NCBI GenBank assembly: GCA_963692775.1
Contig: OY839116.1
Location: forward strand, 3,016,161 to 3,080,160
DNA from: Dehalococcoidia bacterium
GTDB taxonomy: Bacteria > Chloroflexota > Dehalococcoidia > UBA2979
DNA length: 64,000 bases
Reading direction: 5' to 3'
The notes under the pieces: generated by a model
What the model was told of the DNA's origin: nothing
Databases searched by the model: none
Seen by the model: the letters and a program-made list of their open reading frames with translations, nothing else
Made by a program: the position numbers and the translations under genes
Shown here: positions 59,730 to 64,000 of the stretch, one piece after another
How positions within the stretch are numbered: position 1 is the first letter of the stretch
Layout of the letters: every line of letters begins with the position of its first letter

Positions 59730-59978
59730 ATGTCCATGCTCGTACGCGTCACTTCGAAGCGCCAAGTTACCTTCCCAGCGCGTGTGCTGGATACGCTCGG
59801 TGTCAAACCGGGTGACCGACTGGAGATCAGGGAAGGCCCTGACGGGTTCACGATCCACCCCCGCCGGGTCGATCTCTCCAAGCTTGGCACGCTTCGCGAT
59901 CGCATAGACCCCGACCACCCGCCGCTCGATCTCGAGCAGGTGCGGAGCCAGCCCTATGACCCGGCGCTACGGGATTGA
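59730..59978 (+). CDS. vapB: AbrB/MazE-type antitoxin VapB
   Basis: SKRQVTFPARVLDTLGVKPGDRL. The promoter carries a CCTTAC...GTAAGG palindrome. Confidence 0.75.
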   Translation: MSMLVRVTSKRQVTFPARVLDTLGVKPGDRLEIREGPDGFTIHPRRVDLSKLGTLRDRIDPDHPPLDLEQVRSQPYDPALRD

Positions 59979-60354
59979 TACTTCAGTACTGATCCGCCTC
60001 ATCACGGGGCAGCCTGATGATGCCTTCGCTCATTGCGTTGAAAGAATGAGAGTCCTTATCGAGGAGGACGGCGCGGAGATCTTCGCCTCCAATCAGGTGG
60101 TGGGCGAGGCATACGTCACGACGCAACATCACTACGGACTGTCCGGCAACGAAGTCCGAGCCGCCCTCCTCGTGACATTTCAGAGTGGGTTGGTGGCCCC
60201 ACTACAGGGGCGGTCCGTTCTCGATGCGCTCGAGGCGTCCGGGAATCCTGGCCTGATGGACCGCCTGATAGCGGGCGACTACGCGAGTTCCGACCTCGAG
60301 GTGCTGACGCTGGATCGCAAGATGGCCAGGCTACCGGGCTCTACGAGGCTGTAG
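59956..60354 (+). CDS. vapC: PIN-domain toxin VapC
   Basis: GIDTSVLIRL PIN N-terminus. 23-nt overlap with vapB. Confidence 0.75.
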   Translation: MTRRYGIDTSVLIRLITGQPDDAFAHCVERMRVLIEEDGAEIFASNQVVGEAYVTTQHHYGLSGNEVRAALLVTFQSGLVAPLQGRSVLDALEASGNPGLMDRLIAGDYASSDLEVLTLDRKMARLPGSTRL

Positions 60355-60416: not shown

Positions 60417-60842
60417 ATGACCGACACCGAGGCGAACAAGGCGCTCGTGCGGCGCTTCTTCGAAGAGGTGATGAACGAGGGCCGCCTCGATCTCGTCGAT
60501 GAGATCTTCGCGCCGGAGTACGTGAACCGGCACGCCCATCCCGGCCAGCAGCCGGGGCCCGATGGCGTGCGCCAGTTGGTCACGAACGTGCGCCGCGCCT
60601 TCCCCGACCTCGTCGAGACCGTCGACGACCTCGTGGCCGAGGGCGACCGCGTCGGCCTGCGCCTGACGCTGCGCGGCACGCACCTGGGCGCGTTCCGCGG
60701 CGCCGAGGCGACCGGCAAGCGCGTCGAGGTGATGGGCATGGCGATCGTGCGCATCGAGGGCGAGCGGATCGCCGAGGGCTGGTTCTTCTTCGACCGCGAG
60801 GCGATGTGGGAACAGCTGGGCATCGACCCGCCGGCGCGGTAG
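60417..60842 (+). CDS. SnoaL-like / NTF2-fold (ester-cyclase-like) protein
   Basis: ANKALVRRFFEEVMNEGRLDLVDEIFAPEY. Confidence 0.7.
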   Translation: MTDTEANKALVRRFFEEVMNEGRLDLVDEIFAPEYVNRHAHPGQQPGPDGVRQLVTNVRRAFPDLVETVDDLVAEGDRVGLRLTLRGTHLGAFRGAEATGKRVEVMGMAIVRIEGERIAEGWFFFDREAMWEQLGIDPPAR

Positions 60843-60848
60843 GGGTGC

Positions 60849-60922
<74 letters not shown>

Positions 60923-61062: not shown

Positions 61063-61509
61063 ATGAGCGCGGACGACCGCCTGGAGATCATGGAAGTGGT
61101 CGCGCGCTACGCCTACGCGTGGGACGCGAAGGACGCGTCCGCCTACGCCGCCTGCTTCACCGAGGACGCCGAACTCGCGGTCCATACCCGCGGCCGCGAG
61201 GCGCCCGCCATCAGCGAGCGAGGCCGCGACGCGATCGAGACATGGGCGAGGCGCTCGCACAGCGGGGAGCTGGAAGGCATGCGCGAGCCCGATGCGGAGG
61301 AGCGTACGCGCCACGCACCGGGCGGCGTGGTCTTCGACGCCCTCGATGGCGACACGGCGCGGACGCGCGCAATGCTCTTCGAGACGCGGGTCAGCGGGGG
61401 CAGGTCCACGGCGGTCCCGCAGATCTCCGGCGTCTACACGGACGAATGGCGGCGCACGCCCGATGGCTGGCGGCTCTCGCGGCGCGTGCTGCACATGGAC
61501 CGCCAGTAG
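61063..61509 (+). CDS. NTF2-like (SnoaL/DUF4440-type) protein
   Basis: DRLEIMEVVARYAYAWDAKDASAYAACFTEDA. Confidence 0.65.
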   Translation: MSADDRLEIMEVVARYAYAWDAKDASAYAACFTEDAELAVHTRGREAPAISERGRDAIETWARRSHSGELEGMREPDAEERTRHAPGGVVFDALDGDTARTRAMLFETRVSGGRSTAVPQISGVYTDEWRRTPDGWRLSRRVLHMDRQ

Positions 61510-61543
61510 CGGCTGCGGGCGACGGCCGGGAGGGACGGGCACG

Positions 61544-62734
61544 ATGGGCTACCGACCGCGCCGGATGAAGTTCGGCATCTTCCTCGCGCCCTTCCACGAG
61601 CCCGGCGAGAACCCCACGCTCGCCATCGAGCGCGACGCGGCGCTGATCGAGGAGCTCGACCGCCTCGGCTACGACGAGGCGTGGATCGGCGAGCACCACA
61701 GCGTGGGCTGGGAGTTCATCCCGGACCCGGCGCTGTTCGCCGCCCACATGGCCGCGCGCACGAAGCAGATCAAGCTCGGCACCGGCGTCGTCAGCCTGCC
61801 GTACCACAACCCGCTGATGGTCGCCGACCGGATGATGTTCCTCGACCACCTCACGCGAGGGCGCGCGCTGTTCGGCGTGGGGCCGGGCGCGCTTGCCTCG
61901 GACGCCTACATGATGGGCATCGATCCCGCGACGCAGCGCACGCGCATGGTCGAGTCGCTGGACGCGATCCTGCCGCTGCTGCGCGGCGAGCACGTCACGA
62001 TGGAGACGGACTGGTTCAACCTGCGCGACGCGCACCTCCAGCTCGCGCCCTACCGCGAGGAGCACCTCCCGGTCTCCGTCGCGCACAGCCTCTCGCCCTC
62101 GGGGCCGCAGACGGCGGGGCGCTTCGGCATCGGGATGCTCTCGGTGGCCACGGCCGCGCCGGGCGGCATCGGCTCGCTGCAGGGCGCGTGGCAGTGGGCG
62201 CAGGAGGCGGCCGGGGAGCACGGCCAGGAGATCAGCCGCGACGACTGGCGCGTCACGATGTACTTCCACCTCGCCGACTCGAAGGAGGAGGCGCTGGCCC
62301 AGACCGCCGAGGCCTGCATCGCCTACAACCAGGGCTACACCGGCGCGCTCGGCGTGCGCTTCGCCGAGGGCGAGGACACGATCGAGGCGATGGTCGAGCG
62401 CGGCGGCGCGATCGTCGGCACGCCGGACGACGCGATCGAGGGCATCGAGCGGCTGCTCGAGCTCTCGGGCGGCTTCGGCGCGCTGCTCTGCTCGATGCGG
62501 GAGTTCGCGACGACCGAGCAGACGAAGCGCAGCTTCGAGCTGTTCGCGCGCCATGTGATGCCGCGCTTCCAGGGCCAGATCGAGCCGATCGAGGGCTCGC
62601 TCTCCTGGGCGCAGGAGAACATGCGCGAGCTGTTCGCCCCGCAGGCGGCAGCCCAGCGCAAGGCCTTCGAGGACGCCGGCATGGAGGCCCCCGCCCGCTC
62701 CCGCCGCCGCCCCGCCACCCCCTCGCAGCAGTAG
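61544..62734 (+). CDS. LLM-class flavin-dependent (luciferase-like) oxidoreductase
   Basis: MKFGIFLAPFH...GEHH. Start at the first ATG, which has a GGGAGGGA RBS. Confidence 0.8.
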   Translation: MGYRPRRMKFGIFLAPFHEPGENPTLAIERDAALIEELDRLGYDEAWIGEHHSVGWEFIPDPALFAAHMAARTKQIKLGTGVVSLPYHNPLMVADRMMFLDHLTRGRALFGVGPGALASDAYMMGIDPATQRTRMVESLDAILPLLRGEHVTMETDWFNLRDAHLQLAPYREEHLPVSVAHSLSPSGPQTAGRFGIGMLSVATAAPGGIGSLQGAWQWAQEAAGEHGQEISRDDWRVTMYFHLADSKEEALAQTAEACIAYNQGYTGALGVRFAEGEDTIEAMVERGGAIVGTPDDAIEGIERLLELSGGFGALLCSMREFATTEQTKRSFELFARHVMPRFQGQIEPIEGSLSWAQENMRELFAPQAAAQRKAFEDAGMEAPARSRRRPATPSQQ

Positions 62735-62932
62735 GGCTAGGCTCCGACACGCACGCGCGGCCTCATAGGCGGTAAGGCGGGGATGTTGTACTCGGCGTCG
62801 TCCCAGCAGACGACCGCTCTGTCGAGCGCGAAGATGGCTCAGGTGGCCCCGACCCGAGATTCGTCCCAGGATGTTACGTGGTAGAGTCGGCGCGGGGGTT
62901 GAGTAATCGGGCGAAGGGCAACCCTCGGATCG

Positions 62933-64000
62933 ATGCAGCGTTTCCTTCTCGACGCCAACGTCCTGATCCCGCTTGAGCCGACCAGCCCGGCAGACCTTGA
63001 GCCCGATACTCCGCTCGCGGTGGAGATCGTTCAGCGCGCCACCGAACTCGGCTTCCACCTTCTGGTCCATCCGGAGACGGTTCGGGAACTCGCCACCGAT
63101 CCGAATCCCGATCGCCGGATCACCCGGCAGGCTCTGTTGCTCAAGTATCGGGAACTCGAGGATCCGCCCGGCATCGAGAGGGTGGAGGGCGTTCTCGGGG
63201 CAGTGGATCGCCAGAGCAACGACTGGGTCGATCACCTCCTCCTCGCGGCCCTGCACGCGGACGCGGCCCACTACCTCGTCACCAACGACGATCAGATGCA
63301 TCGCAAGGCGCGTCGGCTGGACTTGCCCTCCGACCGCGTACTGACGATCGCCGATGCCCGGGCATTGCTCGGCACGCTGGTCAGCCGCCCTCAACCCCCG
63401 CCCCCGCAAGTCACTGCGCGGCCGCTCCACTCGCTGCGCGGCGCTGACCCCATCTTCCGTAGCTTGCGCGATGACTACCCCGACTTCGACGGTTGGTTCG
63501 CGAACGTCAGCCAGCAGGGTCGGCGAGCCTGGGTGATTGAGTCGCCAGAGGGCGGGTACGCAGGGATTTGCATCTGGAAAGCAGAAGACGATGAGTACCG
63601 GCTCGGCGGCAAGGTGATGAAGCTCTCCACCTTCAAGGTCTCGGAGGAACACCGGGGGCGACGCTATGGTGAACTGCTGCTCAAGACGGCCTTCAACGAA
63701 CTGCACGCCAACGGCTACAACCACGTCTGGCTGACGGTGTTCGAGCGCCACGCAGCGCTCATCACGATGCTTGAGGACTTCGGCTTCGAGCGGCGCCGGG
63801 ACGAGACGGATCTCGGCGAACTCGTGATGGTCAAGGGGCTGGCACCAACTGGTGGAGCGTCGCGCGACCACTTCGCTTACCACCGCGACTTTGGTCCTCC
63901 CGCCGTTGACCCTTCCCTGGGTGCGGGCGTGTACGTGATCCCCATCCAGCCTCGGTATCACGGTCGCCTGTTCCCTGACCACCCTCGCGAGCAGGCTCGC
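62933..64000 (+). CDS. PIN-domain / GNAT acetyltransferase fusion protein, 3'-truncated by the window edge
   Basis: Own translation MQRFLLDANVLIPLEP...YLVTNDD gives the PIN acidic residues, followed by a GNAT motif A RGRRYGELLLKTAF. The ORF is open to the window end, so it is absent from the track. The alternative-frame listed ORFs 62973..63344 and 63031..63219 are artefacts. Confidence 0.55.
   Translation, partial: MQRFLLDANVLIPLEPTSPADLEPDTPLAVEIVQRATELGFHLLVHPETVRELATDPNPDRRITRQALLLKYRELEDPPGIERVEGVLGAVDRQSNDWVDHLLLAALHADAAHYLVTNDDQMHRKARRLDLPSDRVLTIADARALLGTLVSRPQPPPPQVTARPLHSLRGADPIFRSLRDDYPDFDGWFANVSQQGRRAWVIESPEGGYAGICIWKAEDDEYRLGGKVMKLSTFKVSEEHRGRRYGELLLKTAFNELHANGYNHVWLTVFERHAALITMLEDFGFERRRDETDLGELVMVKGLAPTGGASRDHFAYHRDFGPPAVDPSLGAGVYVIPIQPRYHGRLFPDHPREQAR

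Follow-up and report, generated by a model that had tools for sequence, protein, structure and literature searches.

The right-hand end of the window, by which we mean the whole 64,000-nucleotide stretch analysed here, carries gene A of a PDC-M11 or (PIN)-GNAT-EVE plus ASCH cassette. We consider it probable that this cassette is a mobile, two-gene, toxin–antitoxin-like module and a candidate anti-phage system, in which protein A would damage RNA and the product of a second gene, B, would neutralise that damage. The toxicity of the cassette, its substrate, the direction of neutralisation and its role in defence are what we infer, as is the mechanism. On profile comparison, the identity of the module as PDC-M11 (A plus B) appears secure, with B assigned from related loci. 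The gene A product matched the PADLOC profile PDLC04421 (PDC-M11A) with an E value of 3.7e-110, residues 3–352 aligning to profile positions 2–349 of 486, an alignment that takes in the PIN and GNAT domains and the beginning of a C-terminal barrel. PADLOC lists PDC-M11 as a candidate defence system.

A sequence-only reading of this DNA had described a PIN–GNAT fusion and called it unusual. The fusion is real, yet it is neither unrecognised nor a new type of thing, as it is already catalogued both in the PDC-M11A profile and in the literature (Iyer et al. 2013, Matelska et al. 2017 and Bell et al. 2020). According to two later papers (PMC5499597, PMC7641849), Iyer et al. 2013 described a PIN-GNAT-PUA/EVE architecture and predicted nucleic-acid acetylation. 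The passages of Matelska et al. 2017 (PMC5499597) that deal with PIN_15 and PIN_17 call these proteins 'potential toxins' with GNAT-like and PUA-like domains and a second PUA/ASCH gene. The corresponding passages of Bell et al. 2020 (PMC7641849) treat '(PIN)-GNAT-EVE' operons that include an ASCH gene and are linked to type I restriction–modification (RM) and other defence loci, and state that no such module had been characterised experimentally by then. In those passages, a toxin–antitoxin or defence reading had been reached by published computational work (PMC5499597, PMC7641849), and our literature search found no experimental paper on the PIN–GNAT–barrel family. The cassette in the window shares with PDC-M11 its domain order, PIN–GNAT–barrel, and its obligatory ASCH partner, and does not differ in kind from PDC-M11 generally. 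It is the minimal two-gene form, in which the ASCH protein, as read from related loci, stands alone, without the HTH fusion or the AAA_17 ATPase of other PDC-M11 members, and it lies in a high-GC Dehalococcoidia genome, where its neighbours are metabolic genes and not a type I RM system.

The reading frame that opens at the ATG of gene A, at position 62933 on the plus strand, has no stop over 356 codons, up to base 64000, so that 72% of the gene lies inside the window (Table 1). The sequence-only reading had called for the complete gene, and the database protein P0001 supplies it: all 492 residues are available, and the 356 encoded in the window are 100% identical to it. We used P0001 for the C-terminal part of the protein beyond the window end, and read the downstream context from a homologue with 84% identity (locus L001) and from syntenic genomes. 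Homologues of the gene A product numbered 744 at E ≤ 1e-3 among the scored candidates, and the family comprised 1498 representative clusters (50% identity) at the same threshold. An overlapping open reading frame on the opposite strand (61391–63982, 863 amino acids) was rejected as a shadow reading frame of high-GC DNA: its GC-rich codon position is 1, not 3, and homologues were present for the gene A frame only.

Table 1. Features of the gene A region, in positions of the window
Feature	Position	Strand	Basis or remark
Gene A of PDC-M11 / (PIN)-GNAT-EVE+ASCH module	62933..64000	+	Codons 1–356 of 492; truncated by window end
PIN nuclease domain (predicted), aa 1–150	62933..63382	+	Invariant columns (A1, A2), AF2 model, Foldseek, Pfam PIN_3 in relatives
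GNAT acetyltransferase-fold domain, aa ~161–305	63413..63847	+	Pfam, Foldseek, invariant residues
Start of ASCH/PUA-like beta-barrel (predicted), aa ~312–492 in full protein	63866..64000	+	First ~45 residues in window
Conserved TGnTAGAGT element, extended -10-like	62879..62887	+	~45 nt 5' of start codon
Imperfect inverted repeat CGGGGGTTG / CAACCCTCG	62893..62927	+	Presumed 5' leader

The sequence-only reading had placed a PIN nuclease domain at the N terminus on the strength of acidic residues in short motifs, and had held that a lack of conservation of the PIN acids would count against it. The motifs are present (LLDANVLI holds D7, NDWVDH holds D100 and VTNDD holds D119), and D7, D100 and D119, together with D56 and T117, are invariant in an alignment of 35 sequences with 42–83% identity. 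The predicted catalytic acids are D7, E52, D100 and D119; position 52 is glutamate or aspartate in the alignment rows read, and N9, like T117, is invariant. Single-sequence Pfam did not suffice to recognise the domain; this took a modelled structure and Pfam scans across the family. In the gene A protein itself Pfam reported PIN only as PIN_4 at E 0.22, which amounts to no detection, and a 33-sequence N-terminal profile found nothing meaningful among PDB sequences. By contrast with the single sequence, the N-terminal domains of 17 of 33 family members matched Pfam PIN_3, and PIN families were the only ones matched. An AlphaFold (AF2) model of residues 1–152 had a pLDDT of 94.9, and its best Foldseek matches in the PDB were VapC11, VapC15, VapC21, HARP RNase P, Nmd4, Utp23/24 and SMG6, with TM scores of 0.5–0.67 and E values of only ~2e-3. 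Of the 50 PDB matches listed for this model, the majority were PIN proteins and the remainder were low-probability unrelated folds. An N-terminal PIN fold of the alpha/beta/alpha type, with conserved acids of the metal-binding type, is confirmed at the level of the predicted structure.

The GNAT domain named in the sequence-only reading was also borne out. Pfam Acetyltransf_1 matched residues 175–285 (E 2.4e-8; 34.7 bits against a gathering score of 20.7), Acetyltransf_7 matched at E 3e-6, and many solved GNAT structures matched the model in Foldseek at E ~1e-5. Invariant residues in this domain are K216, K230, K235, G242, G246 and K251. We registered motif A by eye against that of E. coli RimI. 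It reads R241-G242-R243-R244-Y245-G246, compared with the canonical Q/R-x-x-G-x-G/A for binding of the acetyl-CoA pyrophosphate: the final glycine (G246) is invariant, the central glycine is replaced by the near-invariant, family-conserved Arg244, and G242 is an extra invariant glycine. In motif B, the customary tyrosine is a leucine. The part of Matelska et al. 2017 (PMC5499597) devoted to this domain calls the motif degenerate and argues that the GNAT-like domain is catalytically dead. Judged from these motifs, the activity of the GNAT domain of gene A is uncertain, although an RNA-directed activity would be plausible given the RNA-binding-type domains to which it is fused.

The sequence-only reading stopped at two domains and missed a third, a C-terminal barrel that is apparent in the model of the full-length protein (pLDDT 90.4). 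The best PDB match of the barrel was the Zymomonas protein ZmASCH (5Y6B/5GUQ), at E 6e-8 and a target TM score of 0.75–0.82. The nearest solved structure is therefore an ASCH protein, whereas the name of the PDC-M11-equivalent operon has 'EVE' in this place; Pfam EVE gave one faint match in 20 family members, and Foldseek favours ASCH. We assign the modelled barrel as 'ASCH/PUA-like' and leave the choice between EVE and ASCH at that. An hhalign comparison of the barrel with the partner ASCH family gave an E value of 7e-4 with a probability of only 27%, and the two have I-x-P-x-Y and PPQS motifs in common, which points to the barrel as a distant relative of the family of protein B. Although ZmASCH is its best structural match, the barrel lacks the catalytic GxKxxExR octapeptide. 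Because this octapeptide is missing, we take the barrel as a binding module and not an enzyme; it is most likely a docking module for nucleic acid (probably RNA or tRNA, perhaps with a modified base).

The sequence-only reading had also guessed that a partner gene lies downstream, and the related loci agree with this. Relatives were sought in 185,579 species genomes, one per species, and 340 were confirmed, a lower bound given that the scan was pattern-based; we examined the loci of the best 80 of these 340, whose records name many different lineages. In each of the 81 related loci examined, an ASCH reading frame of the same orientation follows gene A directly, in most cases overlapping with its stop codon, and the candidate start codon of this frame falls between -37 and +11 nt from the stop codon of A in 79 of them. 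At L001, the gene following A overlaps the stop codon of A; its 141-aa product matches PDC-M11B (E 5e-38) and Pfam ASCH. Three Dehalococcoidia genomes that are syntenic with the tail of the window, at 86–88% nucleotide identity, carry A and then B at this place, and one or more of them show the genes for the LLM oxidoreductase, A, B and the MMPL transporter in this order. Gene B of the window cassette lies, with near certainty, outside the window: it should start ~410 nt beyond base 64000, a few bases at most from where A stops. Read from the related loci, its product would be a stand-alone ASCH protein of ~130–140 amino acids with an intact GxKxxExR.

Across 42 B-family sequences from related loci, K16, E19, R21, Y35, W61 and Y78 are invariant and G14 is at least 90% conserved. 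The B-family profile matched ZmASCH at E 2e-30, and ZmASCH matched the PDC-M11B HMMs at E 3.5e-29. ZmASCH (ZMO0922; PDB 5GUQ/5GUS) and amidohydrolases of the YqfB/TthASCH type have GxKxxExR in common with B, and in our reading of the alignments Tyr47 of ZmASCH corresponds to the invariant Y35. ZmASCH degrades single-stranded RNA in vitro (PMC5615036). A recent preprint reports that 19 of 19 ASCH proteins tested, including ZmASCH, strip ac4C from tRNA in vitro; that the lysine and glutamate of the octapeptide are essential, as judged by mutants of TthASCH, EOLA1 and TRIP4, not of ZmASCH; and that ZmASCH does not hydrolyse free ac4C and has no significant in vivo effect (bioRxiv 10.64898/2026.02.27.708502). 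We rejected ZmASCH as a member of a cassette: where the cassette has an A-type protein, Z. mobilis encodes upstream a 375-aa protein that is unrelated to A (hhalign probability 0.07%, no PADLOC match). ZmASCH is the sole relative of B that has been studied biochemically, and since its own genome pairs it with no A-type gene, its activities are evidence for B by homology only.

DarT–DarG is the comparison system for reversible marking of nucleic acids by a writer and an eraser. The intact octapeptide of B and the deacetylase activity reported for ASCH proteins lead to the hypothesis of a similar pair, in which the GNAT domain would acetylate a nucleobase, B would remove the acetyl group and the PIN domain would cleave RNA with or without the mark. 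The base might lie in tRNA, in another RNA or in DNA (N4 of cytidine would be one example of a target), the barrel might guide the GNAT domain, and cutting might be triggered when the balance tips, for example upon phage infection. We regard this hypothesis as unlikely, although several observations are in keeping with it. ASCH proteins act as N4-acylcytidine amidohydrolases and tRNA ac4C deacetylases for which the octapeptide lysine and glutamate are essential, but the inactivity of ZmASCH on free ac4C and its lack of a significant in vivo effect speak against the hypothesis. The invariance of K16, E19 and R21 is more than one would expect of an antitoxin that only binds protein, yet these residues could serve RNA binding instead of catalysis. 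The toxin-first order and tight coupling of A and B resemble DarTG, and nucleic-acid acetylation is what Iyer et al. 2013 predicted, as cited in PMC5499597 and PMC7641849; however, the degenerate, non-canonical motif A of the GNAT domain weakens the hypothesis, and no member of the PIN–GNAT–barrel family is known to make an acetylated product.

We then considered the genomic contexts of the cassette. The family is found on phages and plasmids as well as on chromosomes, in bacteria and archaea alike. No third gene is conserved with it: among 146 nearest-neighbour reading frames at 80 loci, which were picked by GC3 and length, a crude procedure that misses some genes, each Pfam family occurred at most 3 times and each PADLOC model at most 5 times. 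A few of these frames encode methylase or specificity subunits of type I systems, or type IIG enzymes (3–5 members per PADLOC model). The 'defence island' signal is nevertheless modest, because genes for ordinary metabolism or transport make up most of the neighbours at these 80 loci. Despite 84% protein identity, L001 lies in a neighbourhood different from that in the window and adjoins a C-terminal fragment of MmeI. A full-length pair is present in the archaeal prophage psiM100 (ORFD and ORF5). In a plasmid variant, which adjoins HNH and DUF262 endonucleases, an HTH-ASCH gene precedes the pair and an AAA ATPase follows it, and HTH-ASCH fusions are found in alpha-proteobacterial plasmids. PIN-less forms lie between cI and kil in lambdoid phages of E. 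coli. The cassette is patchy, mobile and self-contained.

One of these phage pairs has been given names. In Escherichia phage PhiR47_2 (PV340567.1), a PIN-less pair between cI and kil is annotated as GevT toxin and GevA antitoxin; these labels are GenBank annotation only, and our literature search found no publication on GevT/GevA. GevT (357 amino acids) matches PDC-M11A at E 2e-133 and aligns to residues 172–437 of the window protein with 27% identity (E 4e-26), and GevA matches PDC-M11B and, in hhalign, also the profile of the B family (E 3e-37). The two genes overlap and stand in the same order as A and B. Unlike gene A, GevT has no PIN domain and is phage-borne, in the immunity region.

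This distribution bears on a model put forward in the part of Bell, Wolf and Koonin 2020 that treats these operons (PMC7641849). In this model, a phage GNAT-EVE protein would acetylate host aminoacyl-tRNAs, and the host PIN-GNAT-EVE protein, its own GNAT domain possibly inactive, would recognise the toxic acetylated tRNAs by means of its GNAT and barrel domains and degrade them with its PIN domain, the ASCH protein being a DNA-binding or regulatory factor. We find this counter-defence quite improbable for the window cassette. Phages do carry PIN-less versions, and PIN-containing versions reside mainly on chromosomes and plasmids, but the PIN-containing pair in prophage psiM100 means that the split between host and phage is not clean. 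A GNAT domain that only binds would suit the degenerate motif A, and a regulatory ASCH protein would suit the HTH-ASCH fusions of alpha-proteobacterial plasmids, whereas B in the cassette stands alone, has no HTH and keeps its catalytic-type residues invariant.

The DNA of gene A differs in composition from its surroundings, and the sequence-only reading was correct in calling it AT-richer: GC content is 0.64–0.67 in the gene A region and 0.71–0.77 upstream. It was likewise correct about the upstream neighbour, an LLM (luciferase-like monooxygenase) oxidoreductase gene. GC3 is 0.79 in gene A and 0.985 in this adjacent gene, and the codon usage of gene A is atypical. Such low GC and such a GC3 pattern are what is commonly seen in DNA that a high-GC genome has gained by horizontal transfer. 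Similarity between the window and L001 begins at position 62869, 64 nt 5' of the ATG of gene A, and includes a [G/C]TAGAGT block that is common to the window and L001–L004, L007 and L008, non-syntenic loci included (alignment A6). Because TGnTAGAGT is kept across non-syntenic loci, its conservation, which is the sole basis for this proposal, suggests that the cassette carries its own putative promoter. A scan for two-hexamer sigma-70 promoters and terminators upstream of gene A gave no matches. The inverted repeat CGGGGGTTG / CAACCCTCG, with 9-nt arms that are 89% complementary and spaced 17 nt apart, is a weak feature that could be due to chance.

These data also bear on whether A and B might be a housekeeping pair, acting in regulated RNA acetylation and deacetylation or in RNA turnover for the maintenance of tRNA or rRNA. 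PUA/ASCH and GNAT domains are frequent in RNA-modification enzymes, and in the lineage of the window the cassette has metabolic neighbours, and its synteny extends to at least three related genomes. However, 340 confirmed relatives, itself a lower bound, is a small number for 185,579 species genomes, and they are scattered over lineages, with neighbourhoods that differ even between L001 and the window. Carriage on phages and plasmids and atypical codon usage also argue against a housekeeping role. The sequence-only reading had named alignment with a characterised housekeeping family as the result that would overturn it; every NCBIfam match lay far below its cutoff, and no equivalog came near. 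We therefore hold a housekeeping role to be very improbable, and count it with the counter-defence proposal among the less likely readings.

In the sequence-only reading, both domains were presented as toxin folds of the VapC and TacT/AtaT kinds. The PIN and GNAT folds stand, but membership of VapBC or of TacAT/AtaRT does not: there is no partner of the VapB, RHH or DUF1778 type, motif A has an arginine and the partner is an ASCH protein. VapBC systems pair a PIN toxin with an antitoxin of the AbrB, RHH or Phd type. Gene A has in common with them the PIN fold and the full acidic set, and VapC proteins of M. tuberculosis and Caulobacter are the best structural matches, but its PIN domain is the N-terminal part of a 492-aa fusion with marginal Pfam PIN similarity. 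Upstream of it lies the LLM oxidoreductase gene rather than a small DNA-binding antitoxin gene, and the 198-nt spacer 5' of gene A contains no reading frame for such an antitoxin. A genuine VapBC-like pair is present elsewhere in the window, at 59730–60354, 2.6 kb upstream, and is unrelated to gene A. TacT, AtaT, ItaT and KacT are aminoacyl-tRNA acetyltransferases with RHH or DUF1778 antitoxins. They have the GNAT fold in common with gene A, but TacT/AtaT toxins are stand-alone proteins of ~170 amino acids with an upstream RHH or DUF1778 antitoxin and a motif A of the form Q/R-x-x-G-x-G/A, whereas gene A encodes a multidomain protein with R-G-R-R-Y-G and a downstream ASCH partner. Enzymes of the TmcA/NAT10 type combine a helicase/ATPase domain, a GNAT domain and a tRNA-binding domain; we found no match to this type of cytidine acetyltransferase, the NCBIfam matches being confined to the short GNAT core.

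We favour the reading of A and B as a toxin–antitoxin-like conflict module because a related phage pair is labelled toxin and antitoxin (GevT/GevA), because psiM100 and plasmids carry such pairs, and because RM genes are found among the neighbours. The lack of a third conserved gene, the heterogeneous contexts and the contrast in GC3 (0.79 against 0.985) lead to the same reading. In such a module, the gene A protein would dock on RNA through its C-terminal barrel, and the docked effector would harm that RNA by metal-dependent cleavage through the PIN domain, by acetylation through the GNAT domain, or by both. B, a co-translated neutraliser, would either reverse the damage enzymatically, by the amidohydrolase or deacetylase chemistry of ASCH proteins, or neutralise A by binding A or its substrate.

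The copy in the window adds little on its own, as the cassette was already known from comparative genomics and a defence-system database. The family of the PDC-M11 type is, however, widespread yet biochemically uncharacterised, which makes it a worthwhile experimental target. With the octapeptide of B intact in 42 of 42 sequences and ac4C deacetylation reported for ASCH proteins, the hypothesis of an acetylating writer and its eraser can be tested. If true, it would describe the first toxin–antitoxin or defence system built on nucleobase acetylation, and would give the ASCH 'ac4C erasers' a dedicated physiological writer.

An extended –10-like element, TGnTAGAGT, precedes the cassette and is a putative part of its promoter. 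It is kept at aligned positions in the relatives' cassette loci (L001–L004, L007 and L008), in syntenic and non-syntenic copies alike.

Sites in and around the cassette and its relatives (window positions unless a locus is named)
Feature	Position	Strand	Evidence or remark
TGnTAGAGT	62879–62887		about 45 nt upstream of the start codon; conservation
VapBC-like pair	59730–60354	+	2.6 kb upstream of gene A
AbrB/MazE-type antitoxin gene	59730–59978	+	Pfam MazE_antitoxin, E 3e-9
PIN protein gene	59956–60354	+	overlaps the antitoxin gene; Pfam PIN, E 5e-4
SnoaL-like/NTF2-fold gene	60417–60842	+	Pfam SnoaL, E 4.5e-36
tRNA-Cys gene	60849–60922	-	
SnoaL-like/NTF2-fold gene	61063–61509	+	Pfam SnoaL_4, E 1e-25
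MmeI-type fragment, Dehalococcoidia relative	L001 9576–9824	-	PADLOC, E 4e-16
GevT/GevA pair, Escherichia phage PhiR47_2	L082 2944–4372		PV340567.1
375-aa protein gene, Z. mobilis	L083 3825–4952		48 nt from ZmASCH
ORFD and ORF5 pair, psiM100	L085 2504–4349		
Three-gene variant, Rhizobium sp. WSM4643 plasmid	L086 2223–7470		

The window also carries a classical, VapBC-like toxin–antitoxin pair that is separate from the cassette. This pair lies in a patch of low GC (0.62) adjoining a tRNA-Cys gene, and the patch looks like a variable islet because the syntenic relatives L003 and L004 have only part of it. Two genes for SnoaL-like (NTF2-fold) proteins flank the tRNA-Cys gene, both of them upstream of the luciferase-like monooxygenase gene. 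In a non-syntenic Dehalococcoidia relative (L001), an 82-aa fragment just upstream of the cassette matches the C terminus of MmeI-type type IIG restriction enzymes and is possibly the remnant of a decayed defence locus.

Variants of the cassette were also found on mobile elements. The Rhizobium plasmid carries a three-gene form, in which an HTH–ASCH gene is followed by the PIN–GNAT–barrel gene and then by a small AAA ATPase gene, and this variant directly adjoins an HNH endonuclease gene and a DUF262–HNH (GmrSD-like) gene. In phage PhiR47_2, a PIN-less PDC-M11 pair, labelled 'GevT toxin / GevA antitoxin' in the record, sits between cI and kil, the interval that holds rexAB on the phage lambda map; a search of the available literature found no publication for either name. 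The archaeal Methanothermobacter prophage psiM100 encodes a full-length PIN–GNAT–barrel protein (97% query coverage, 27% identity), whose gene lies largely within 'inserted fragment IFa'. The next gene overlaps it and encodes an ASCH protein (hhalign E 1e-31), described in the sequence record as similar to ORF5 of phage psiM2.

In Zymomonas mobilis, the gene for the crystallised ASCH ribonuclease ZmASCH (ZMO0922) is preceded on the same strand by a gene for a 375-aa protein. This protein matches nothing in Pfam or PADLOC and does not resemble PDC-M11A, so the ASCH protein in Z. mobilis may be coupled to a different effector.
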